From UHGV virus genome UHGV-0125592: a stretch of DNA of 33,748 nucleotides. One strand, written 5' to 3'. Source of the DNA: a virus. Positions 1,207 through 23,338 of the stretch are shown here, one piece after another. The notes under the pieces were generated by a model that saw only the letters and a list, made by a program, of their open reading frames with translations, was not told the origin of the DNA and did not search any database. Every line of letters starts with the position of its first letter. Position 1 is the first letter of the stretch. A program made the position numbers and the translations under genes.

Positions 1207-1872
1207 TCAATAAATCCTCGGTCGTTCTCCCTGTTGAAGTTGTTGATCAGCATATTCCTTAATCATGTACATGAAGGCAGCTCCGTCATTAAAACGATCA
1301 TGAAGGCGACCAGCCAAAGGTGACTCTATTGCCCTCAAAGCCGGTTCTATCTGGTTAAACCATGCTTCACACATAACCTCGAAATAATCGAACATTGCGT
1401 TTGCATTGTGGGCGTGTATTTCTCTATTGCTGAGCATCTTCGATGCTGGAATATTTATAGACACCTCACGATCCAGAATATCTAACACCCAGCGTCGGAA
1501 TTCTTTAGCAACCGGAGTTCTCGCAAACATAGCGACCATGTGTGCACCACGTAGAGAAAAAACTCGAGTTTCTTGATGCCCACTAGGGGTGGTCAACTTG
1601 ACCACCCTCGACATTCTTTGCGTAAATTCATCAGAATGCCTTGAATAGATGCGCTGCACAGCTTTATCGTCCGCATACTGTAATGCATAACCAATCTGAT
1701 TAGCGGTCAGCCAAATGCCATCTTTATCAGAAATGCTCTGCAGAGATACGTCTTGGAAGTTAAGCTCAATTTTGGTTACACTATTCATGTCGATATCTCC
1801 TTTGCCGGATTTGTTCGATAAGAGGCCCAGAGTGTTAGCGCACTTCTGGGCTTCGCTACTTTTAACGACCAT
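1207..1872 (-). CDS. ant: Bro-N domain antirepressor (Ant-like)
   Basis: 221-aa ORF with Bro-N-like segment (WLTANQIGYALQY...VFSLRGAHMVAMFARTPVAKEFRRWVLDIL); start overlaps the stop of the upstream arc-like gene; AAGAGG ribosome-binding site. Confidence 0.7.
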   Translation of the reverse strand: MVVKSSEAQKCANTLGLLSNKSGKGDIDMNSVTKIELNFQDVSLQSISDKDGIWLTANQIGYALQYADDKAVQRIYSRHSDEFTQRMSRVVKLTTPSGHQETRVFSLRGAHMVAMFARTPVAKEFRRWVLDILDREVSINIPASKMLSNREIHAHNANAMFDYFEVMCEAWFNQIEPALRAIESPLAGRLHDRFNDGAAFMYMIKEYADQQLQQGERPRIY

Positions 1873-2035
1873 TTTCTACCTCTTCCCTCACTCCTTTTGC
1901 CAATAAACGAACAATCGCGGAGTTTAGTGAAATGCAGTCCATTTCCGCCAATCTCCTGATATCCTGGTCTAATCTCGCTGGTAAGCGAAGGTTACGTTTA
2001 ATGTTCTTTCTTTCTGTATAAAGTGAATCTTTCAT
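1862..2035 (-). CDS. arc: Arc-like ribbon-helix-helix repressor
   Basis: 57-aa product from ATG at 2035 (MKDSLYTERKNIKRNLRLPARLDQDIRRLAE...), small basic RHH pattern like P22 Arc; AAGGAG 7 nt upstream; co-directional with and overlapping ant. Confidence 0.65.
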   Translation of the reverse strand: MKDSLYTERKNIKRNLRLPARLDQDIRRLAEMDCISLNSAIVRLLAKGVREEVENGR

Positions 2036-2144
2036 TAAATTCTCCTTTTGGGGCCAAGTTAACACCTGATGTTAAGTTAACACCATTGCGATAGATGTCA
2101 AGTTGGCCCCATAATAATTTTATACAATCTTTGTAGGTGATGTG
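2036..2144. promoter_or_regulatory. Divergent promoter/operator region between arc-like and mnt-like genes
   Basis: Direct repeats AAGTTAACACC at 2056-2066 and 2074-2084 (each contains palindromic GTTAAC); inverted repeat GGGGCCAA (2050-2057) / TTGGCCCC (2103-2110). Confidence 0.5.
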
Positions 2145-2501
2145 ATGAGCAAGTACCCGAGCCAAATGCAAGACAAATTCAACCTACGCTTCCCTGACGG
2201 AATGCGTGACGTTATAGCTGAGCGAGCAAAGCGCAATGGAAGATCCATGAATTCAGAGATAGTGGATATAATTGCAAATGCTATATCACAACCGGCTTTA
2301 GCACAGGAGGGTATTGAATTCATTCTTGGCCTAACGGAGCCCGAAGAATTTGCAAAGCTAAACGATAAAGAGAAGGAAAAAGTTCAGGGAGTTCTAACAG
2401 ATGCCGCGGCCATAATGGCAAGAAACATAGAAACTGAAAGCGCCAATTTAAGGAAAATATTATTTCTACTATCCCAAGGCAGCCCCCTTCAGAAGGAGTG
2501 A
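2145..2501 (+). CDS. mnt: Mnt-like ribbon-helix-helix repressor
   Basis: N-terminus QMQDKFNLRFPDGMRDVIAERAKRNGRSMNSEIVDIIANAI resembles the Arc/Mnt DNA-binding motif (P22 Arc: MPQFNLRWPREVLDLVRKVAEENGRSVNSEIYQRV); longer C-terminal tail as in Mnt; divergent from arc-ant. AGGTGA ribosome-binding site. Confidence 0.65.
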   Translation: MSKYPSQMQDKFNLRFPDGMRDVIAERAKRNGRSMNSEIVDIIANAISQPALAQEGIEFILGLTEPEEFAKLNDKEKEKVQGVLTDAAAIMARNIETESANLRKILFLLSQGSPLQKE

Positions 2502-2510
2502 GACTCCATT

Positions 2511-3230
2511 CTAATAGGGTTTAACTAAATCCTTGTAGCGCAGTACCTTCATCGTCCGTTCCTGCCAGTATCCGCCATACGGAACACGCTGGCTCAAATG
2601 GCCATAAAGATGGTGGAGTAACATGTTACCTTCCAGCAGGATCCCTGCATGGTTCCACTTATTAGCCTGGACCTGCATGATAACCATATCACCTGGCTGC
2701 GGTACGCCACTGAATTCACGGAAGCCGCACTCATACCAGCAATCGTGGTAGAAGTTTTCGGGGTAACTGTCTTCCCACCAGGGATAATCGACGCGGTAAT
2801 CCTTCAGTTCAATACCATGCTTCTGCCTGAAGTAACTCATCACCAGCCCCCAGCAATCGAAGTGACCGAGCACAAATGGGCGCTCCAGTAGCGGCAGCTC
2901 GCCCCGCGGCTGGATAGTACGTACATCCCCCTCCGGCCAGCTGACGATATGCCAGGGAAGTAACGTAGCGTCACACTGTGCCTTATCCAGTTCGCTCGCC
3001 TGCGTCGTGGCATCCGGGTGGCTGTGGACAATGGCAATCACTGTTCCCCAGTCTTCGGCAGCGGCGTAATCTTCCGGCGACAGGTGGAAATGCTCTGTCG
3101 GATCGGTTGCCAGATTACGGCAGGGAATGTACCGCTGCACCCTGCTTTTTTGCACCACTACGCCGCAGCATTCGCGCGGATATTCAGCAGCAGCATGCGC
3201 CATAATAGCGTCGATAATTTTCTGACGCAT
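2511..3230 (-). CDS. Tail assembly protein K (MPN/JAMM plus NlpC/P60 domains)
   Basis: JAMM motif HSHPDATTQASELD and a Cys/His NlpC/P60-like C-terminal region; sits at the lambda K position next to L. Confidence 0.85.
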   Translation of the reverse strand: MRQKIIDAIMAHAAAEYPRECCGVVVQKSRVQRYIPCRNLATDPTEHFHLSPEDYAAAEDWGTVIAIVHSHPDATTQASELDKAQCDATLLPWHIVSWPEGDVRTIQPRGELPLLERPFVLGHFDCWGLVMSYFRQKHGIELKDYRVDYPWWEDSYPENFYHDCWYECGFREFSGVPQPGDMVIMQVQANKWNHAGILLEGNMLLHHLYGHLSQRVPYGGYWQERTMKVLRYKDLVKPY

Positions 3231-3231
3231 A

Positions 3232-3987
3232 TCAGCTCCTGATCAGGGATGTGCCAGGGAAGCCACCGAACGGCAACTCGTTCCCCTCGCCATGCCTCAA
3301 CTTGCACGCAGTGAGCGTACCGGGGCATTCATCGAGTGACGGATCGTTAACCGGGTTGTTGTGCTTGTCGAAATAACGCGTTCCGGCATAGTCACATCCA
3401 TCACCTGAGCGATATTTGTTACGGATACACCAGGTACAAAGCGAATGTAGCTGGCGCGTCGGGATCATCAGCCCCTGCAGGTCCATTGGACTGGACAACG
3501 TAAACGCCACCACCTCGTTGGTTTCAGTGCTCTTGGCGTCAATGTAAAACACCTTCAGCTTTTCCTGCTGCGGATCCGCTGACGGGTTGCCCTCCGGATA
3601 GTTTTTCGCATCCAGATACTGCGCCAGCGTGTCATGAATCGTGACCTTTGCCTGCAGCAGGTCATCATAAGCAAGACACAGCGCCGTAATGGAACTGTCC
3701 AGGTTAGCGACCGACAGCGTCGGTTGCGCGCTGGTCCCGTCGGTCGCCGTCTCAATACCCTCTATCTGGCAGGGCCAGGCTTTATATTCCTGCCCCTGCC
3801 ACCAGATCGATTTCGCCGGTAGCTTATTTTCATCTCCACCAGCAGCGGCAATTTCATCGGGAGTGTGGGCAATATTGTGGGCGTGGAAGCGGAGAACGTC
3901 GGAAACACCAAATGCGGTGCCATCGACATCAAAAAGCCGGACAGCATTGCCCGGCTCAAGTTTCTGATAATCACTGTTTAAGTTCAT
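3232..3987 (-). CDS. Minor tail protein L
   Basis: 251 aa; similarity to lambda gpL including the C-terminal Cys cluster (CTWCIRNKYRSGDGCDY...CPGTLTAC); position between M and K. Confidence 0.85.
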   Translation of the reverse strand: MNLNSDYQKLEPGNAVRLFDVDGTAFGVSDVLRFHAHNIAHTPDEIAAAGGDENKLPAKSIWWQGQEYKAWPCQIEGIETATDGTSAQPTLSVANLDSSITALCLAYDDLLQAKVTIHDTLAQYLDAKNYPEGNPSADPQQEKLKVFYIDAKSTETNEVVAFTLSSPMDLQGLMIPTRQLHSLCTWCIRNKYRSGDGCDYAGTRYFDKHNNPVNDPSLDECPGTLTACKLRHGEGNELPFGGFPGTSLIRS

Positions 3988-4331
3988 GGTGCAAATGCCT
4001 GTTCAAACGTGGCCGAAACGGTTTCCACCGTTTTACTTTTGGTGACTCGCTGCATGCTGTCTGCCTCAACGCGCCACAGCGCAAGATCACCGCCTGGCGG
4101 GGTAAACGAAAATGATTTCGTCTTATGGCGCCGCAGGAAAGCATAAATATCCCGGACGGTTTGCGGTTCGCCGGTAAATGAAAACTCATAACTGAGCGTT
4201 TCATCATTCATCCCGGCACCTGACACCTGCTTATAGCCATCACCAAACTGCGCCGTGCGGACGGTATCCTTACTTTTCAGGGTCGGCTGGCTGGATGCTT
4301 TAATCCGCCATGCAAAATGTTCGATCGCCAT
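3984..4331 (-). CDS. Minor tail protein M
   Basis: 115 aa, lambda gpM size and position; overlaps L start. Confidence 0.8.
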   Translation of the reverse strand: MAIEHFAWRIKASSQPTLKSKDTVRTAQFGDGYKQVSGAGMNDETLSYEFSFTGEPQTVRDIYAFLRRHKTKSFSFTPPGGDLALWRVEADSMQRVTKSKTVETVSATFEQAFAP

Positions 4332-4334
4332 TGC

Positions 4335-6851
4335 TTACCTCTGTTTTGTTGCATTCCAGATGATGCCGCCGGGCCGGACTTCTCTGGTGATACCTTCCCT
4401 GATGGAACTGTTGATCACCTGCTGATAGGCTTTCCCAAGCGCATCGCCGCTACCTTTCTGTTGACCGGAATCCCCCTGGCCTGTTGTAACCGAAACCGGT
4501 GCATACACGCTGACGCCAAAAGGAGAAGCAACGCCACCGCCACTCCCCCCGACCAGACCGCCAGTCGCATAACCACGCATCATGCGATAAAGGTTGCCGA
4601 CACCGATTCGGTTAGTGGCCTCCTGCGTAAAGACAAACTCTCCACGGTGCACCACACCTGCAGGCTCATACTTGCCGCCGGAGCCGGTATAACCACCGCC
4701 AGCAAAACCCAGCGCTGACGTGGCGGAACTGACCAGGCCAACCATGGCCTGCTTCATCAGGATCTGCGTCAGCATCGACAATGTGGAACGGGTGAAATCA
4801 GCCCAGTTTGCTTTCCCTGTCGTCAGCATATCGGCCATGTTCTGACTGATGCCATCGAATGTGGCTGAAGCAGCGGACTTCATCGAACCATAGGCATCAG
4901 CAGCTGAATCGGCATAGTCCGCCCAGGCGGATTTTGCCCCGGCCTGCCAGTCGCTACGGAGCTCATCCTGTGCGGCATAGTATTCCTTCAGCGCCGCCAG
5001 CTCGTTCTGATAGCCCTGATCGGAATCCGTTCCGCCGGCATTCATCCAGCCCTGCCGCAACTGCGCCTCTTCGTTTTGTCGCTGCGCACCGCGACTGCTC
5101 ATGCTGCCCCCGGCCACCAGCGCTCGGGTCTTCTCCCCGATCTTGGTAACGTACTTCTGCGAGCTGTCCTGCAGGCGGTTTAACCGCTCCTGGGCAACAA
5201 TCTGATCACCCAGTCGGGCATTCACTTCGGCCCGCGCCAGTACCTCGTCTTTGTTCGCCAGCACCGATTTTTCATCGGCGGTCAGCGCGCGCTTTTTGGC
5301 GGCCTCTTCCAGCACCGAAAAGCGGGATTGCTGTTTCCACAATTCCTGCCGCTGCTGGCTGATGGTATCCGTGATGCTCTTATGCTCCTGCAAAGTGCGT
5401 AACTGCGCCTCCAGCTCGAGCGTCTGCGCGCTGGCAGCATCGACACTTTTTACGCCTGCAGGTGTTTTCACTGCTGACGGCTTTTTAGGCTTCTTCAGTG
5501 AGTCGTCGTATTCCTTCTTAGCGGCTGCCATCAGAATGTTGTAATCAGCCTGGAGGATACGTCCGTCTTTGATGGCCTGATTATATTCTTTCTGTTTTGC
5601 CGTAAATTTATCCAAAGCTGATTCGGTCTTTGAATATGCAGCCTGCGCCTGCGCGGCATACTTCTGGCGATCAGACTCAATCACCGCCTCGCGTGCGGCG
5701 TTATCCTCAGTTGCCTTTGCCACACTGGCCTGCTGCTGCGCCATTTCCAGTGCAAGGCGTGCAGATTCCCGATCGTTCCAGTAGCTGGCGCGCGCATCAT
5801 CATTGACATAACCATCACCTTTACGCAGATTCCAGATTTCATCCGCCCGCTTAAAGGCCGCTTCAGCTTTGGCAACCATCTCCTGCGTGGTGTCAGGCCG
5901 GCCGATATCGAGCGCCGCATCCCACATCGATTTAAAGGCACGCTTCAGGCTGTCGGCAGCAGTCTCAATCGACCCCATATTGTCGCGCAGGCTCTTTGTC
6001 TGCTCACGAAAACCATTCGTCGCCGCATCATTAGCCGCCTGCAGCGCCCCGGCTTCATCCCCGGCACGTTGCAGCTGTGCCACATAAGCAATCTGTTCCG
6101 CTGTGACGTTATGGAACTGCTGCGCCATGGCAATCAGACCAGAGGTCGGATCGTTCGTCAGTTTGCCGAATGCCGCCGCCACCTTATCGACCGGCACACC
6201 CGACGCATCGGTGAATTTCGCTACCGCCTGACTCATATCATCGAACCGGGCACCGGCACGCACTCCGGCGTTAACCAGCTCCGTCAGCGCGTTGCTGGTC
6301 TGGTTAAACGTGAGTCCCGCCTGCTCGCCGGATTTCGCCAGAACCAGCATGCGGTTTGAGGTCAGCCCGGCAGTGTTTCCGGACAGGACCAGCGTTTTGT
6401 TGAAATCAGACAGCGTGGACGAGCCCTGATACCAGGCGTAAACCACCGCACCGGTGGCGGCTGCCAGCGCGCCAACCCCCACCATCACCGGCGATATGGT
6501 GCCCAGCAGCGCCCTGAAGGTCGGCATGATACCGCCGAAGGAGTCTTTAACCTGACCACCCTGCTGCAGCAAAATGAGCCATGGGCTTTGACCACCGGCC
6601 AGCTGGGTGGCGATATCCGTAAACTGCGCAGGCAGCATACGCATCGCGGCGTTGTACTGGCCTACAGAAATACCGGCCTTCTTCGCCGCGCTCTCCTGGC
6701 GGGTAAATGACTGCTGCACCTTCAGCGCAGAGTCATTCGCTGCGTCACCCGTCTGCTTAAACTGCCGTTTTACGTACTCCATCTGTTCGTTGAACTTTGA
6801 CGAGTTAACATCAAGGTTAACGACCAGGTCACCCACTGCCGTCTGGGCCAT
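4335..6851 (-). CDS. Tail tape measure protein (gpH-like)
   Basis: 838-aa Ala/Gln-rich coiled-coil protein with Gly-rich C-terminus, downstream of G-T as in lambda. Confidence 0.9.
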   Translation of the reverse strand: MAQTAVGDLVVNLDVNSSKFNEQMEYVKRQFKQTGDAANDSALKVQQSFTRQESAAKKAGISVGQYNAAMRMLPAQFTDIATQLAGGQSPWLILLQQGGQVKDSFGGIMPTFRALLGTISPVMVGVGALAAATGAVVYAWYQGSSTLSDFNKTLVLSGNTAGLTSNRMLVLAKSGEQAGLTFNQTSNALTELVNAGVRAGARFDDMSQAVAKFTDASGVPVDKVAAAFGKLTNDPTSGLIAMAQQFHNVTAEQIAYVAQLQRAGDEAGALQAANDAATNGFREQTKSLRDNMGSIETAADSLKRAFKSMWDAALDIGRPDTTQEMVAKAEAAFKRADEIWNLRKGDGYVNDDARASYWNDRESARLALEMAQQQASVAKATEDNAAREAVIESDRQKYAAQAQAAYSKTESALDKFTAKQKEYNQAIKDGRILQADYNILMAAAKKEYDDSLKKPKKPSAVKTPAGVKSVDAASAQTLELEAQLRTLQEHKSITDTISQQRQELWKQQSRFSVLEEAAKKRALTADEKSVLANKDEVLARAEVNARLGDQIVAQERLNRLQDSSQKYVTKIGEKTRALVAGGSMSSRGAQRQNEEAQLRQGWMNAGGTDSDQGYQNELAALKEYYAAQDELRSDWQAGAKSAWADYADSAADAYGSMKSAASATFDGISQNMADMLTTGKANWADFTRSTLSMLTQILMKQAMVGLVSSATSALGFAGGGYTGSGGKYEPAGVVHRGEFVFTQEATNRIGVGNLYRMMRGYATGGLVGGSGGGVASPFGVSVYAPVSVTTGQGDSGQQKGSGDALGKAYQQVINSSIREGITREVRPGGIIWNATKQR

Positions 6852-17839: not shown

Positions 17840-18364
17840 CTACTTTTTCATTTGTTCAGTCACTCTGTTATTTGACTCTCTCACCGAGTCGTAAACTCGC
17901 TCACACGTTATTCCAGCTCGGTAGCTTTCGTCAGATCGCTCAGCATAATATCGAGCTTCTTCTGCAAGGCGTCCGAGCATGTCGGCGAGCACTGCGGCGG
18001 CGGATCCGGCTGTTTTGCTTCTGACGGCAGCGGCAAGATCTGAGGTGTGCTTTGCGGCGTCCAAGCGGGCGGCAAGCTTTGTTGCTTCGGTGCGCAACTG
18101 GCTAACAGTGGCAGACAGGCCAGCAGCAGTGGCAGCAGATTTAGCGGCTTGTGCTTGTGCATCTTTTACAGCCTCATCACGGGCAATTATGCGCCCTTGC
18201 TCAATCATGCGGGCGGCGGTCTGCGCGTTCGCTGTTTGCGATGATTCCGCGCTGTCACGGTCAGCCCACTTCTTTTCCCAGCCGTGATTGCTCCATACGT
18301 TTCCGGCGATGAATGCGACAGCCACTAGCATCAAAATAACAATGAACTGATAGTGCAGGTTCAC
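17840..18364 (-). CDS. Rz-like i-spanin
   Basis: N-terminal TM helix ([15 protein letters not shown]) then Ala/Gln-rich coiled coil; follows the endolysin; probable GTG start overlapping the endolysin stop (GTGA). Confidence 0.7.
17908..18162 (-). CDS. Rz1-like o-spanin lipoprotein embedded in Rz
   Basis: Lies entirely within Rz in another frame; signal peptide with lipobox LLASC, Pro-rich mature part. Confidence 0.6.
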
Positions 18365-18909
18365 TTGTCTATCCCCCAGCACGTCAGCCCGCTTTCCTGG
18401 TCTCGTCGTTCAACCTGTCCGTAGCAGCCGTTTTTCTGGCCTTTGGTCAGACGGCAATCGCGGCCACCGTCTTTAATCCACCAGCGGATCGCTTCACAAG
18501 CTCCTTTTCGGTCGCCAGCATTGATCCGTTTGTAGAAAGTGGAAGGGAAGCATTTTCCGGGACCGATGTTATAAGGGCAGAAAGAAGCGATACCCGCTTT
18601 CTGAGGTTCACTCAGCGGGACTTGGATATTTTTCTCTACCCACGCCAGCGCCTTGTCGCGTTCTATGGCGTTCACCTGGGCGCATTTCTCAGCAGACAGT
18701 TTCATGCTCTGAACTACTGGCTTACCGTCAACCATCGTGGCGCCACGGCAAATGGTCCACACTCCGCCGCCGTCGCGATATGCCGTCAGGCTGTTACCCT
18801 CTTTCTCATCCAGAAACTGATCGAGAATTACAGGTGCGGAAGCCCCAGCAAGAATCAAACCAACTACCGCTGCACTCAGTTTATTCTTCAGCTTTGGTGA
18901 CATTGCCAT
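18361..18909 (-). CDS. SAR endolysin (GH24 T4-type lysozyme, RrrD-like)
   Basis: Catalytic E-x8-D-x5-T motif ([16 protein letters not shown]); N-terminal weakly hydrophobic signal-anchor-release segment ([17 protein letters not shown]); GGAGG ribosome-binding site. Confidence 0.85.
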
Positions 18910-19159
18910 TAAGCCGGTCCTCCCTTTCCTTTTTCCTGTAATACCAGTTCACTGCACAGGTGATAACCGTGCATGCGATACCGACAATAATTGCCCAGTC
19001 GCTCAGGCTTAACCCTGCAATTCTGTCGGCCAACATCCAGGACACCTCTTTTGCTGTTTTAGCTGTTTCGGCGTATGCCTTCGCTGATACACCGCAGCCG
19101 GTCAGCGTGGTGCCTGTTCCATATGAAAGTCTGCTGTAAATGGTGCTCATTCTGGTCAT
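18881..19159 (-). CDS. Pinholin-type holin (S21-like) with dual start
   Basis: MTRMSTIY... has two Met codons separated by Thr-Arg (antiholin/holin pattern); Gly/Thr-rich TMD1, hydrophobic TMD2, charged C-terminus; GGAGGTGAGG ribosome-binding site; overlaps the endolysin start. Confidence 0.7.
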   Translation of the reverse strand: MTRMSTIYSRLSYGTGTTLTGCGVSAKAYAETAKTAKEVSWMLADRIAGLSLSDWAIIVGIACTVITCAVNWYYRKKEREDRLNGNVTKAEE

Positions 19160-19263
19160 AGCCTCACCTCCGATAGTACGGATGGCGCTGTGTGTGATGA
19201 AAGGGTCAGGCCCTCGGGCTGGATTTAACAACGAAGCATGTCGATGATGATTCCCGTGAGCCT

Positions 19264-19294
19264 GAAATAGAAAAGGCCACGCAAATGCGCAGCC
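19264..19294 (-). terminator. Intrinsic terminator (tR'-like), copy A, upstream of the holin
   Basis: Minus-strand transcript GGCUGCGC-AUUU-GCGUGGCC forms an 8-bp stem using two G-U wobble pairs, followed by UUUUCUAUUU; forms only in the minus-strand transcript. Confidence 0.55.
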
Positions 19295-19352
19295 TGTAAC
19301 CAGAAATCAATATTGTCTTTACATCAATTTTTCTTAAGGTTAAATTCTTCTG

Positions 19353-19428
19353 ACAAGTTGATGAAAGACAACTTGAATATTAGCTATTTGTTCTCTGTTA
19401 TGCCCGCAACCCAATGCGGGCTTTTTTT
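19353..19428 (+). ncRNA. Candidate small RNA (about 75 nt) antisense to the late transcript
   Basis: Promoter-like TTTACA (19318-19323), 17-bp spacer, TAAATT (19341-19346); internal hairpin CAAGTTG-ATGAAAGA-CAACTTG; strong terminator GCCCGCA-ACCCAA-TGCGGGC + TTTTTTT (19402-19428); no ORF. Confidence 0.4.
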
Positions 19429-19551
19429 CGCCCTGCTAAAAGTTCCACCGTTGTGAGCCTTTTTGCTATGCAATAATGGATGCGTGGTGCCGGGTGTCTC
19501 CCGGTGATCCTTTGGCTGACAACCCATGCCTCACGAACATTTCACAACGGG

Positions 19552-19581
19552 ATATAGAAAAGGCCGTGCATTTGCATAGCC
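19552..19581 (-). terminator. Intrinsic terminator, copy B (imperfect duplicate of copy A)
   Basis: Minus-strand GGCUAUGC-AAAU-GCACGGCC hairpin (one mismatch) followed by UUUUCUAUAU; shares the flanking motif ATAGAAAAGGCC...AGCC(C)TGAAA with copy A. Confidence 0.45.
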
Positions 19582-19602
19582 CTGAAAGATGTTTATGCTT
19601 TA

Positions 19603-20100
19603 TTAATTCGCTGGAATATCTGGCATGGCGCGATCCATAGAAGAGCTAATTAACGCCTTAATAGCGTTGCATACCTGATAAAATCCACCCAGCTGAGATG
19701 AGACAGAAAAACGGGAGACGTCGTCTCCTGAGCCTACTTCAGCATAAAATGATGAGTTCTCATACCAGAGTGAGATGCTTACGCCCTGCCTGTAGCCACC
19801 TGTTAGCGGAGAATCATCAAGAGTGGTTGCAATCACGAAATTCAAGTGGTAACGGCTGTCCATATTGAGTTGGGGGATTAAGACAGGAAAGAACTTCCCC
19901 TCCTCCTCCCAAATACCAATGTCCACATAAGGCCATCTTGTTCCGTCAGAACCAGTCCACTCACGAGATGTAAGATCAAGAGAACCTGAATACTCTCGTA
20001 GTAGTTCGCTCGCCTTCTCCTGAAGTTTATCCTGTAACTTCCATTGCGCCTCGACCAGTTTAGTGCGTTTTTCTTTCAGATCCTTAAATGTTAATTCCAT
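19603..20100 (-). CDS. Hypothetical protein (cargo, low GC)
   Basis: 165 aa from ATG 20100 with GGAG ribosome-binding site (MELTFKDLKEKRTKLVEAQWKLQ...); no recognisable motifs; divergent from the adjacent plus-strand operon. Confidence 0.5.
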   Translation of the reverse strand: MELTFKDLKEKRTKLVEAQWKLQDKLQEKASELLREYSGSLDLTSREWTGSDGTRWPYVDIGIWEEEGKFFPVLIPQLNMDSRYHLNFVIATTLDDSPLTGGYRQGVSISLWYENSSFYAEVGSGDDVSRFSVSSQLGGFYQVCNAIKALISSSMDRAMPDIPAN

Positions 20101-20183
20101 GCCACTCTCCAGACAACTTTTGAAAGGAATCTGCATAGTAACTCACCCTGAAAGCACATGGTTATATTTCACTTACACTGAGT

Positions 20184-20220
20184 GCGAAAAACAAAAACCC
20201 CACCATTTCTGGCAGGGCTT
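20184..20220 (-). terminator. Possible terminator upstream of the 165-aa gene
   Basis: Minus strand: GC-rich imperfect hairpin (CCCTGCC...GGTGGGG) followed by TTTTTGTTTTT. Confidence 0.3.
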
Positions 20221-20349
20221 CGATTGTTAAGCTGTGTGTCGAAGTGACCACTCTTAACACGTTACATTACTTTTTGCGGACCGCAATAATGTTTTTTATT
20301 ATTAAAACAGGTATTTTATGGAAAAAAATCAAACCATAGCGAGCAAATA

Positions 20350-21219
20350 GTGACCAATACTACTTCTTTTCAGATCTTCTATGATGCAGAAGACACTGAA
20401 TTGGCACAGCATAAAATTGATGCAAAAACACTTAGCATTTCCATAGGTTCTATGGCTGATTTAATTTCAGCCGCCGATAAACGGCTTAACGACGGTCAAC
20501 AAACTGTGAAGTTGATGGTGACAAACCCGGCCGAGGCTGGCTCTCTCGGCGTATCCTATACGATGATGGAACTTGTCCCACATGCAATCAATGTTGCGAA
20601 AGTGATCGGATTGACAGGGTTAGCCGGCGCAGCAATTGGTGCACCTGCATTATCGTTAATTCGACAGTTGGGAAGTAAGAAAGTCATTTCCATCACGAAA
20701 CGAGCAGGTACAAACCAATCCGTTCTTGAGCTCGAAGGTGAAGAGATTGTTTGTCATGATTCTGTAGCAAAGCTAGTGACTGATCCAGAAATTAGGAATG
20801 CTTTAGTGAACGTTGTGCGCGCACCTTTAGACGGGAAAGAAGGCGCAGTGTTCAAAGTTCTGAATGAAGACGGTATCGAAGTCGTCCGCCTGGAAGGTGA
20901 AGAAACTGAGGAAATAAAACCACTTCCCAGGGGCACTTTGCTGGAAAAAGAAGAATCAGTGGAAGAAGTAAACGTAAGATTCGTCCAAATAAACTTTGAA
21001 GGAACAAAAGGTTGGAGGATTGAGTACCTCGGAGAGGAACATGCAGTTTCGTTTGAGGATCAACTTTTTATACATCAAGTCCAAAATGGGATCGTTAGTT
21101 TCACCAAAGAAGATTTGTTTGTCGTTGACCTCAAAACAACAAAAACTTTCACTGCACGTAATGCTTCAACCAAGTATGCTATAACCAAAGTTAAGCGAAA
21201 ACGCCCTGCTGAGGCTTGA
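20350..21219 (+). CDS. Hypothetical membrane-anchored protein, first gene of a three-gene cargo operon
   Basis: 289-aa ORF (GTG start at 20350; first in-frame ATG at residue 35); central hydrophobic segment INVAKVIGLTGLAGAAIGAPALSLI, acidic C-terminal half; low GC; preceded by a 10-codon mini-ORF whose stop overlaps the GTG. Confidence 0.5.
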   Translation: MTNTTSFQIFYDAEDTELAQHKIDAKTLSISIGSMADLISAADKRLNDGQQTVKLMVTNPAEAGSLGVSYTMMELVPHAINVAKVIGLTGLAGAAIGAPALSLIRQLGSKKVISITKRAGTNQSVLELEGEEIVCHDSVAKLVTDPEIRNALVNVVRAPLDGKEGAVFKVLNEDGIEVVRLEGEETEEIKPLPRGTLLEKEESVEEVNVRFVQINFEGTKGWRIEYLGEEHAVSFEDQLFIHQVQNGIVSFTKEDLFVVDLKTTKTFTARNASTKYAITKVKRKRPAEA

Positions 21220-21275
21220 TTAACGTGGCATTAAACTTGCAGATAGCGCAACTGATCTTCTGGATAGGAGTGATT

Positions 21276-21485
21276 ATGATCATTCCTACCTTTAGTCGTT
21301 TCTGCTATTCGGCATCTGCTTTGCTATGGCGTCGATTGTTTCCTACCAGGACCTTTGAGTTCCGGTATCACGATGAAGATACTGGTACAACTAAAACACT
21401 CATAGTTAAGGTGCCAAGAAAAAACGGCAAAATGCTTACCAGCCTTATTGATGAGGCTATTTCGGAGAATTCAAAACCAAAATGA
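21276..21485 (+). CDS. Small hypothetical protein, second gene of the cargo operon
   Basis: ATG at 21276 with GGAG 8 nt upstream; 69 aa; an upstream TTG start would add a hydrophobic N-terminus; stop overlaps the next start (ATGA). Confidence 0.4.
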   Translation: MIIPTFSRFCYSASALLWRRLFPTRTFEFRYHDEDTGTTKTLIVKVPRKNGKMLTSLIDEAISENSKPK

Positions 21486-21904
21486 GTTCTCAAAGTAAAG
21501 GTTTAAGTACTGGAAAAGCGACACTTTCCACTGGTGGTTGGGGAGCAATACTCAGCGTTTTAGTTGGTGCAGTTCTTACAGACCCCAACAGCGTGTGGAG
21601 GACGGTTGCTTATGCCCTTGTGCCTGGTGTTGCTGCTGTCCTTACCTACGTGATGAATTGGTTCATTTCTAGGCATGGGTTTGAATCACCAGAAGATGCA
21701 GCTAAACGAGCGAAGTGTAAACGAGATTTAGCTGAGATCGAAAAACAGCTAAGCTCAGAGCATTTAACCCCTGAAATTGAAGCCAGGCTGATGCAGGCAA
21801 AGGCCAAGACAATTGAAATACTCGTTTCTATTGGCAGCGACTCTATCCTTGAAGCCTCATCACGTTCGAGCCAACTACCAGATACTGCCGGGCCTCAAGG
21901 CTAA
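21482..21904 (+). CDS. Two-TM membrane protein with C-terminal coiled coil, third gene of the cargo operon
   Basis: 140 aa; two hydrophobic helices (GGWGAILSVLVGAVL and VAYALVPGVAAVLTYVMNWFI) then a charged helical tail; translationally coupled to the preceding gene. Confidence 0.5.
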   Translation: MSSQSKGLSTGKATLSTGGWGAILSVLVGAVLTDPNSVWRTVAYALVPGVAAVLTYVMNWFISRHGFESPEDAAKRAKCKRDLAEIEKQLSSEHLTPEIEARLMQAKAKTIEILVSIGSDSILEASSRSSQLPDTAGPQG

Positions 21905-21926
21905 CCGGCAGTCTTGATTTTAACAA

Positions 21927-22295
21927 TCAATCATCCATGTCAAGTCGAATATCAAGCATAGCCAAACATCCGTCTATAAATCCTTCTGCCATCTGTATCT
22001 CGATGCGTATCAATTTCTCATCTTTTTTACGCGCTTTCGCAATCTTCCTCTTAGATATTCCGTATAGGTAGTGGGCAACAAGAAGTGAATGCTCATATGG
22101 TTTTCGGTTTTTCAATCGCGCCAGGCACCCTTCGATGATCAGCGCATCATCGTCAGTACAAGACGGTCGGGAGCTACCTATTTGCGGCAACAGCCCTTTA
22201 AATCCTGCAGCTATAGGAGAATAGTCCACGCCAGAACTATCACTGGCAGCCCACCCGCCCCATCTTTCGAGTAACATTTGAATATCACGCATCAC
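21927..22295 (-). CDS. Late-gene antiterminator Q (small Q family, QuuD-like)
   Basis: 122 aa; MMRDIQMLLERWGGWAA...IAAGFKGLLP...SRPSCTDDDALIIEGCLARL...AEGFIDGCLAMLDIRLDMDD matches the conserved pattern of the DLP12/phage-82-type small Q proteins. Confidence 0.75.
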   Translation of the reverse strand: MMRDIQMLLERWGGWAASDSSGVDYSPIAAGFKGLLPQIGSSRPSCTDDDALIIEGCLARLKNRKPYEHSLLVAHYLYGISKRKIAKARKKDEKLIRIEIQMAEGFIDGCLAMLDIRLDMDD

Positions 22296-22309
22296 TTTTC
22301 TCCATACAC

Positions 22310-23338
22310 TTAAGCTTTCGCAATTACGCCGATCGCCAGCGCCCGATCCATAAAACGCAGTAGCAGCTCAAGCTGCGTACCATGCTTCTGCTCGAATGCT
22401 GGTACATCGGCGTGTAACTCGTCGTGGCACTCTCTGCACAGAGGGATCACGAAGAGGTCATGGGCTTTTGTTGCTGTACCACCCATACCGTGCCCTACGA
22501 TATGGTGCGGATCATCTGCTGGCCGTCGGCAACACTCACAGGGTTGTGTTTTTACCCAGCGGGTGTAAGTCTCATTTATCCAGCGGCGTCGCTTTGGCCT
22601 GAGCATGAAAGATTCTGGAGATTCCGGATCAACAGAGAGCGTGAGGATCTTCTTCGCCTTCTCCTGCACGAGGCTGGTTGCAGACGCTAAAGGCACAATG
22701 TCGCTTTCCCTCATGACAGAGCGGATGTTCTCATCCGGAAGGCGCAGCCCTTTGTGAGCAACGCTTTCCGGAATAACATCAGCCAGGTCGTTTCTGACCA
22801 TCCACCAGCACAGTTCCGGAAGCGTCAGGATATGCGACTCGGGAAAACCAGAATCACGCCGAATGACTTCCAGAATCCAGGATACCAGGTTTCCTGCCGC
22901 TATACCTGCAAGCTGTTCGGTATGCTGCCCCGACAAAGTGTGATCGCAATGCCAGCACAGGCGAATGCTTCCTGGTGGGTGCCGCATTGTTGTGAAGTTC
23001 TTGTCGTGCCACGTTGAATGTGGCCACTGGCATTCAAACCGATTACTCAGCCATTGCTCAAGGGAAGGAAGCCCGCCGGCACGCTGAATAATCCTCTCAT
23101 TCTCGAAGACCTGACGCATTACCGGATCATCAGCCAGCGGCTGAATGGCTGCCGGAACAGCCCCGGTACTGAATGACGCCATTTCTTCTGGTTCAGGCTC
23201 GAGCAGAACGCGACCACGCATGAAGAGGTGCATCAGCTCCGCACCAGGACGGAACAGCACAATCCCCATACGATGGGCGATCTCGGGGGTAAGCAGAGCT
23301 TTCACGCGACCTGCCCCCTGGCAATGTGTTCTGCCCAC
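22310..23338 (-). CDS. DUF968-like protein (YdfU-like) with C-terminal HNH-like Cys/His cluster
   Basis: 342-aa ORF; C-terminus CECCRRPADDPHHIVGHGMGG...CRECHDELH; start uncertain (internal Met codons at 23269 and 23230 possible). Confidence 0.55.
   Translation of the reverse strand: MGRTHCQGAGRVKALLTPEIAHRMGIVLFRPGAELMHLFMRGRVLLEPEPEEMASFSTGAVPAAIQPLADDPVMRQVFENERIIQRAGGLPSLEQWLSNRFECQWPHSTWHDKNFTTMRHPPGSIRLCWHCDHTLSGQHTEQLAGIAAGNLVSWILEVIRRDSGFPESHILTLPELCWWMVRNDLADVIPESVAHKGLRLPDENIRSVMRESDIVPLASATSLVQEKAKKILTLSVDPESPESFMLRPKRRRWINETYTRWVKTQPCECCRRPADDPHHIVGHGMGGTATKAHDLFVIPLCRECHDELHADVPAFEQKHGTQLELLLRFMDRALAIGVIAKA

Follow-up and report, generated by a model that had tools for sequence, protein, structure and literature searches.

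Predicted intrinsic terminators before the holin gene of a lambdoid prophage, one of them joined to a conserved lysis-cassette leader

We analyzed the late control region of the viral genome UHGV-0125592 (33,748 nucleotides, the whole of which is called the window below), which is a lambdoid prophage, its host probably Citrobacter or a near relative, with its late operon on the minus strand. Two similar inverted repeats, copy A and copy B, lie upstream of the holin gene in this operon. It is likely that copy A is a second intrinsic stop fused to the leader of the lysis cassette, that copy B is the terminator of a cargo gene, and that such serial stops, which begin with the promoter-proximal terminator tR' of the late promoter pR', silence the lysis genes until read-through by polymerase modified by the late-gene antiterminator Q. 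Judged by sequence, both copies are ordinary intrinsic terminators of a lambdoid late leader, at which transcription would end, and they belong to one hairpin family, GGCYRYGC-N4-GCRYGGCC followed by UUUUCUAU.

Copy A (19264-19294) and copy B (19551-19581) are 31 nt long each and agree at 24 of these 31 positions, with 287 bp from one start to the next. This number of identities was reached in none of 200 dinucleotide-preserving shuffles of the 3.6-kb region 18800-22400, in which the best pair of 31-mers within 400 nt shared 23 bases. This bears out the two imperfect copies about 290 bp apart that an earlier note on this DNA had described. Read on the late strand, the homology is limited to the hairpin and UUUUCUAU, and it breaks off exactly after GGCCTTTTCTAT / GGCCUUUUCUAU. 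Each copy on the minus (late) strand consists of a hairpin and then UUUUCUAU. On the plus strand, a T run follows neither hairpin and both stems are weaker (−9.0 kcal/mol for A), so the claim that the terminators are specific to the late strand holds. Both copies show the features of intrinsic terminators, namely a G+C-rich stem-loop, a U run on the late strand only, and a structure that is conserved over sequence.

Copy A (19265-19295, minus strand; stem 19295-19274, U tract 19274-19265) was called by the terminator scan with nine pairs. Its minus-strand sequence AGGCUGCGCAUUUGCGUGGCCU forms these nine pairs, six of them G-C and two G·U, around a 4-nt loop and is followed by UUUCUAUUU; the core is a GGC...GCC stem and then UUUUCUAUUU, which holds the UUUUCUAU U run. 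Taken alone, the hairpin has a predicted energy of −14.3 kcal/mol, which becomes −16.3 in context (z −2.9). The former value is near the median of −14.9 for 193 hairpins at the homologous position.

These hairpins adjoin a conserved holin leader (19160-19268, minus strand, in the window), which we collected from 303 phage and prophage loci by three IMG/VR pattern scans and an nhmmer profile. With a cut-off of dG ≤ −8 plus a T tail, a late-strand hairpin and T tail abut 193 of 216 distinct leaders, compared with 17 of 216 on the other strand, and several of the 23 "misses" are short terminators that fall under the energy cut. The junction carries 101 different hairpin sequences of several unrelated types, and in every case 3-9 nt separate the end of the stem from the leader. 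Within the family to which copy A belongs (GGC-5-4-5-GCC), pairing is kept through compensatory changes of the inner pairs: U·G, U-A or C-G at one pair and G·U, G-C, A-U or U-A at the next. Across 219 distinct 400-nt regions upstream of the leader, terminator-like sites number 1.64 per region on the late strand vs 0.31 on the opposite strand; at least two late-strand terminators are present in 110 of these regions and at least three in 29. In loci without cargo (L096, L113 and L163, and likewise L015, L025, L103, L117 and L121), a second terminator fused to the leader stands within about 10 nt of tR'. A doubled late-strand stop before the holin thus looks like the ground state of the leader family, with copy A as the second stop. 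The presence of a terminator in about 90% of leaders, the spacing of 3-9 nt, the second terminator without cargo and the five-fold late-strand bias together argue strongly that a terminator at this exact place is under selection and that copy A would be a selected structure.

Copy B (19552-19582, minus strand; stem 19582-19562, U tract 19561-19552) stands at the 3′ end of the cargo gene ORF177 (19603-20136, minus strand; 177 aa), which lies between tR' and the holin leader. ORF177 matches PHROG 5091 (unknown function, E 1.8e-55) and gave no match in Pfam or PADLOC. The stem of B begins 20 nt past the stop codon of ORF177. Its minus-strand sequence is GGGCUAUGCAAAUGCACGGCC followed by UUUUCUAUAU, with an internal A·C mismatch; the core alone has a predicted energy of −8.3 kcal/mol, and the hairpin in context one of −11.1 (z −0.9). 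The earlier note had placed a late-strand hairpin in each copy and proposed RNA folding and terminator prediction as checks. Copy A does fold into such a hairpin, with two G·U pairs, whereas the stem of B is broken by the mismatch, folds with the low core energy given above and was not called by the simple scan.

The relatives of the cassette that carries ORF177 show how B looks elsewhere. In 24 other cassette loci, the 3′ arm of B is GCAUGGCC or GCGUGGCC and the stem is perfect (−12.3 and −11.9 kcal/mol, respectively); both alternative arms pair, the changes being compensating. The GCACGGCC arm with the A·C mismatch was found in the window and in seven loci. B accompanies ORF177 in every copy of the cassette, as the gene's own 3′ terminator. 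Since the sister cassettes show a perfect stem, B would be a true terminator of the cargo unit that was weakened in the lineage of the window.

The cassette recurs as a single block of about 1.1 kb (about 20248/20281 to 19163 in the window) with 93-100% identity, beside different Q regions and holins. It comprises tR', ORF177, B, the interval between B and A, A and the leader, and was found in L049, L054, L058, L073, L099 and L113 and in the Citrobacter loci L306 and L307. The cassette starts directly after the T run of tR', and its ends are fixed at pR'/tR' and at the holin start. A tandem duplication of a single unit, as A and B had been taken to be, did not find support, as A belongs to the lysis-cassette leader and B is the 3′ end of a cargo gene. 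Most likely, B arrived via insertion of the cargo by recombination between two terminator/leader copies. The similarity of A and B is best read as what is left of that duplication, B having retained no more than the hairpin and UUUUCUAU.

The order on the minus strand is Q, a pR'-like block, tR', B, A and holin. The gene for Q (21927-22295, minus strand; 122 aa; Pfam PF06530 Phage_antitermQ, E 3.9e-53; PHROG 79, anti-termination protein Q-like) lies 2.7 kb from the holin gene and is the only one in the window. The probable late promoter pR' (20259-20286, minus strand) has the −35 hexamer TTGCGG at 20286-20281 and the −10 hexamer TAACGT at 20264-20259; the −35 overlaps the palindrome TGCGGTCCGCA (20271-20284), and the initial transcribed block GTTAAGAGTGGTCACTTCGACACACAGCTTAA follows the promoter. 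In E. coli AREA_C483, the counterpart of the region 20307-20194 immediately follows the remnant of a Q gene. The pR' block occurs in 34 loci with one layout, consisting of a short palindrome, TAANNT, GTTAAGAGTGGTCACTTCGACACACAGCTTAA, about 10 variable bases, and a hairpin with a T run. TAANNT is kept, and the hairpin with its T run lies within about 50 nt of the block in all 34. Across these loci, the −35 palindrome varies (GCGGTCCGC, CGCGTACGC and TACGTACGTA) and the transcribed block downstream of it is constant; the palindrome is a candidate that may be the binding element for this type of Q.

The first late-strand intrinsic terminator, tR' proper (20184-20221, minus strand; hairpin 20221-20194), reads GAAGCCCUGCCAGAAAUGGUGGGGUUUU followed by UGUUUUUCG and was detected by the terminator scan with 12 pairs. 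Its energy is −16.7/−18.2 kcal/mol (z −3.5), none of 200 shuffles was as stable, and it occupies the conserved tR' position of the pR' alignment. Copy B is located about 610 nt and copy A about 900 nt downstream of tR', corresponding to about 690 and 980 nt from the putative transcription start. A tR' is the first terminator, roughly 50-260 nt from the start of pR'. The earlier note had called A and B tR'-like. Because the hairpin at 20221-20194 holds this promoter-proximal place, A and B are not tR'; in the order of transcription, B is the second and A the third late-strand terminator.

The same layout supports the view that the late transcript must cross both elements, since the window's single Q gene and the probable late promoter lie 5′ of them, and a gene that is a holin by Pfam (PF16080/PF04971) lies 3′. 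Because they are between promoter and holin, a polymerase that reaches the holin must pass A and B and would therefore have to be terminator-resistant, that is, modified by Q. By position, 3′ of pR' as recognized by homology and before the late genes, both are placed as substrates of Q antitermination. No late-strand promoter was predicted between A and the holin by the promoter scan, and no tRNA genes were found in the late leader.

Q renders polymerase terminator-resistant, as in phages lambda, 82 and 21. In Stx phages, pR' is constitutive and its transcripts are stopped at tR' in lysogens (PMC7547250). The window may work in a similar manner. In the lysogen, unmodified polymerase could come from a constitutive pR', from a promoter that the cargo may have or from any site further upstream, and three stops in series, tR', B (a leaky one here) and A, would halt it and leave holin and endolysin silent. 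Upon induction, Q would load at pR', the polymerase would become terminator-resistant, and it would read past all three terminators into the lysis and morphogenesis genes. The pair of terminator and leader travels with lysis cassettes across phages of Escherichia, Klebsiella, Salmonella and Citrobacter. What we observed directly are the sequences with their folds, the bias to one strand, the conserved terminator at the junction and the boundaries of the modules; from these we infer termination, Q-dependent read-through and the safety function.

Several observations weigh against this explanation. The U tracts of both copies are broken after four U (UUUUCUAU). In the window, B is a poor hairpin, weaker than about 99% of the 193 at the homologous position, and may cause little termination. 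The simple consensus scan for sigma-70 promoters did not call pR', whose hexamers are weak, and 20259-20286 is probably pR' by homology and position only. The argument that the stops insulate the holin from cargo is weak for ORF177, which lacks a clear promoter of its own; a weak candidate upstream (TTCGCA-16-TATAAC) was picked by eye and was not called by the scan. About 7-10% of leaders have no adjacent terminator, so it is not obligatory. Finally, as the hairpin types at the junction are unrelated, they could be mere 3′ ends of upstream modules and not a dedicated part of the lysis cassette.

The leader itself (AUUUCAGGCUCACGGGAA...CAGCCCG(N)GCCUGA, followed by a spacer that varies and by the hairpin sequestering the Shine-Dalgarno sequence) has a near-invariant core of about 85 nt, in which about 50 alignment columns are at least 90% conserved and the flanks of which are free to vary. 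Copy A and the approximately 105 nt from it to the holin start recur before quite different holins. Carriers include HK225, mEp237, Gifsy-2 of Salmonella, many Klebsiella phages, Citrobacter phage Chris1 and E. coli prophages. The fold of 19299-19152 (−49.8 kcal/mol, z −3.1) contains the terminator, a long hairpin and the Shine-Dalgarno-sequestering hairpin (19187-19166). The possible long hairpin, P1 (19265-19206), keeps 98% pairing in its stem over 138 sequences, and the one-sided changes for the most part still permit G·U pairing on the late strand; covariation of P1 in these sequences, which hardly vary, was no better than in shuffles. About 70 non-coding bases, loops included, are thus near-constant before unrelated holins, for which a recombination joint, a protein or RNase site, and an RNA element are possibilities. 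The leader is not in Rfam, and a full-text literature search on its sequence gave no paper. A hidden second leader after B was considered and rejected, because only one copy was found in 19100-20400 with all nhmmer filters off and the homology of A and B ends after GGCCTTTTCTAT.

The holin Shine-Dalgarno sequence can pair with an upstream CCAUCCG (19148-19187, minus strand), and by eye the two arms change together in relatives (UCCGA/UCGGA, UCCGU/ACGGA and CCCGC/GCGAGG). Together with the dual start of the holin, this hairpin presumably resembles the start-site control structures of lambda S and phage 21 S.

Cargo before the holin was also found in other phages. The terminator and leader are duplicated on both sides of cargo in Chris1, where they surround an RNA similar to the small RNA (sRNA) STnc100 together with uspF, and in L104, L049, L082 and L150. 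In Gifsy-2, a leader and a truncated holin precede gtgA and the real holin. The order within 1800-4380 of this prophage (L321, NC_010393.1) is tR', a small open reading frame (ORF), a second terminator, the leader and a 41-aa holin fragment (STM1024); opposite-strand cargo including gtgA follows, and then a second ribosome-binding site and the real holin. From this order, the virulence cargo of Gifsy-2 lies inside a duplicated leader and holin 5′ end. In L113 (3740-4280) and L049 (1-600), a truncated holin start is fused to an unrelated coding sequence; downstream of the fusion come a second, partial copy of the pR' transcript, tR' and the ORF177 cassette. These fusions look like scars of recombination between two late leaders.

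A different origin of the hairpins is suggested by the interval between B and A, which holds a 5′-truncated relic of an sRNA of the STnc100/PasD kind (19484-19535, minus strand; core ...GUUGUCAGCCAAAGGAUCACCGGGAGACACCCGGCACCACG...), the own terminator of which has decayed. In the whole window, Rfam gave no match at gathering thresholds. At permissive E-values, the sole credible match was a sub-threshold one to STnc100 (RF02076), with 31.2 bits over 19669-19430 on the minus strand vs a gathering score of 47, so that the sequence falls short of membership of the family. Permissive matches to RprA, AgvB, rseX, OmrA-B and Phe/Trp leaders were rejected, since they were driven by terminator hairpins. 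The relic lacks the 5′ domain; in alignment with complete copies, its core CACCGGGAGACACCCGGCA is conserved, and BLAST identity is 86-93% to Chris1, KO-TP1 and E. coli S1. L008-type loci carry two such cores in tandem. In L018, L108, L035, L014 and about 50 other loci, a conserved stretch of about 200 nt (...GCUACUAAGCUAUUUGGUAG...CCUGGUAAAUCGGUAGCUCGGACUAUUAGG...) lies between the core and the leader and has a terminator of its own at the end, about 50 nt ahead of the one that adjoins the leader; this stretch looks like a longer structured RNA.

The hairpins might accordingly be the 3′ ends, combining terminator and Hfq-binding module, of prophage sRNAs of this kind, with insulation of the holin as a side effect. 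In addition to the core between B and A, STnc100-like cores occur within 1.5 kb upstream of 118 of 294 leader instances, on the late strand and at discrete distances, the PasD2 terminator of E2348/69 (GGCUGCGCAUUGCGCAGCC followed by U8) closely resembles hairpin A, and the STnc100 terminator of E. coli O157:H16 has the same CUUUUCUAU tail. PasD and StxS are Hfq-binding sRNAs from this genome region (PMC8550237, PMC7547250, bioRxiv 10.64898/2026.05.13.724894). However, the relic in the window is truncated, scores 31 vs 47 bits and has lost its terminator; about 130 nt with an oppositely oriented unit separate it from A, hairpins of the A type stand directly after tR' without an sRNA body (L113, L096 and L163), and B follows a protein-coding gene. 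We regard this origin as unlikely. It is quite unlikely that the terminators have no dedicated role at all, the leader being a recombination linker to which each upstream module, tR' or moron, brings its own terminator, so that A and B resemble each other through shared ancestry of exchanged modules. Such an explanation would account for unrelated hairpin types joined to the same leader, for duplicated leaders that flank cargo, for the sharp and recurrent end points of the cassettes, and for a near-invariant leader whose stem shows no covariation above shuffles. It does not explain why the stem always ends within the same few nucleotides of the leader, why about 90% of distinct leaders have a terminator, why a second one stands right after tR' even where there is no cargo, or why the bias to the late strand is five-fold. 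Both of these explanations overlap with that of serial stops and are not exclusive of it. Very improbable, in our judgment, is a conditional switch (attenuator or riboregulator) in which hairpin A and the structured leader tune holin synthesis or the timing of lysis. The leader does combine a long hairpin with one that sequesters the Shine-Dalgarno sequence before a dual-start holin, its primary sequence including loop residues is extremely conserved, and where only one side of the long stem changes, the late strand can mostly still form a G·U pair. Yet we found no alternative pairing in competition with hairpin A, the covariation of the long stem is no better than that of shuffles, and the hairpin is freely replaceable in sequence while the leader is fixed, which would be odd for a specific anti-terminator pairing.

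The oppositely oriented unit between the relic and A is a candidate sRNA gene antisense to the late genes (19318-19428, plus strand), detected by promoter and terminator scans, with the sigma-70-like promoter TTTACA-17-TAAATT at 19318-19346. The predicted RNA (about 19353-19428) has ACAAGUUGAUG at its 5′ end; a 7-bp hairpin comes next, then an AU-rich linker, and a strong terminator at 19402-19421 with U7 closes it. Its fold has −21.1 kcal/mol (z −2.5). A diverged homologue in L148 differs in the middle; it retains the −35, a −10 that reads TATGTT at the same 17-nt spacing, the initial 11 nt and the terminator. The unit has two sequence variants only in IMG/VR and matched no Rfam family. In enteropathogenic E. 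coli, the sRNA genes PasA/PasC are located just upstream of a prophage holin and antisense to late genes (PMC8550237, Table S6; bioRxiv 10.64898/2026.05.13.724894). The candidate has the same place and orientation; a search for it as a PasA/PasC homologue found none, and it has no sequence similarity to PasA.

The heptamer CCTGAAA, to which the earlier note had pointed as a recurring motif, is indeed present on the plus strand at 19261, 19581 and 20147. We rejected it as a motif. It is in excess throughout the window (14 occurrences vs 4.9 expected from dinucleotide shuffles, with none of 100 shuffles reaching 14), and the three local copies are out of register with the repeat and stand in unrelated contexts, namely the start of the conserved leader, the stem of B with its flank, and a place beside the ORF177 ribosome-binding site. 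Our guess is that the excess comes from frequent CTG-AAA codon pairs and is not a signal.

The lysis genes downstream of the leader are those for the holin (18881-19159, minus strand; 92 aa, dual-start motif MTRM; also PHROG 20, holin), an endolysin (lysozyme; 18361-18909, minus strand; Pfam PF00959) and a protein of the DUF2514 family at the spanin position (17840-18382, minus strand; Pfam PF10721). Read by eye, the N-terminus of the endolysin looks like a signal-anchor-release (SAR) domain; the DUF2514 protein is a putative spanin, a label taken from its sequence and the gene order and not from a tool. Large ORFs beyond the lysis genes are presumably terminase and structural genes, judging from size and order. 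A divergent operon on the plus strand is inserted between Q and the probable pR'. It consists of three overlapping ORFs of 289, 89 and 140 aa at 20350-21904, divergent from pR'; the first has matches in PADLOC (defence candidate PDC-S42, E 2.7e-31) and to PHROG 3243, and the other two gave no match.

Compared with the lambda-type tR'/Q system (6S RNA of lambda, StxS), A and B are likewise late-strand intrinsic terminators between the Q gene and the late genes, and from their position the same dependence on Q-modified polymerase is expected. They differ in that they are not promoter-proximal, A being joined to the leader of the lysis cassette and not to the promoter module, and the Q of the window is of the PF06530 type, unlike lambda Q. 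Morons, a concept said to go back to Juhala and co-workers in 2000, reportedly carry their own terminator as a rule, and B fits this as the own terminator of ORF177. STnc100 (RF02076) and PasD1/PasD2 occupy the same niche between Q and holin in late orientation, and their core CACCGGGAGNCACCCGGCA is common to the relic; the terminator hairpin of PasD2 and its UUUUCUAU tail resemble A and B. The copy in the window differs in being truncated and sub-threshold, and A and B are not demonstrably its terminators. Predicted terminators within the one late operon were described in P22-like phages including phage L, where their roles were unknown and partial termination or stopping of non-antiterminated polymerases was proposed (PMC8022706). 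The difference here is that the place is fixed, the stop being joined to the conserved leader before the holin, and that this recurs in hundreds of phages; the full-text search on the leader sequence gave no description of it.

It is conceivable, though we propose it tentatively, that the terminator and the leader of about 85 nt form one dedicated module of the lysis cassette. This module would serve both as a fail-safe for the holin in the lysogen and as the preferred joint at which cargo enters by duplication of the leader, such as morons, sRNA genes and, in Gifsy-2, gtgA; the cargo of the window would include the undescribed antisense sRNA gene at 19318-19428.

The terminators alone add little, as Q-modified polymerase is known to ignore terminators and extra terminators in late operons have been noted before. 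Of interest are chiefly the conserved module of terminator and leader and, besides it, the candidate for an antisense sRNA. A stop fused to the leader in hundreds of phages, half of which have at least two late-strand terminators in the 400 nt before the leader, is a useful comparative pattern. It offers a testable answer to what terminators within late operons do, which is that in a lysogen they may hold a lethal gene silent. For the annotation of prophages, the leader and the candidate antisense sRNA are two non-coding features that had gone unannotated, and the leader would mark the exact joint at which prophages take up cargo, including sRNAs and virulence genes.

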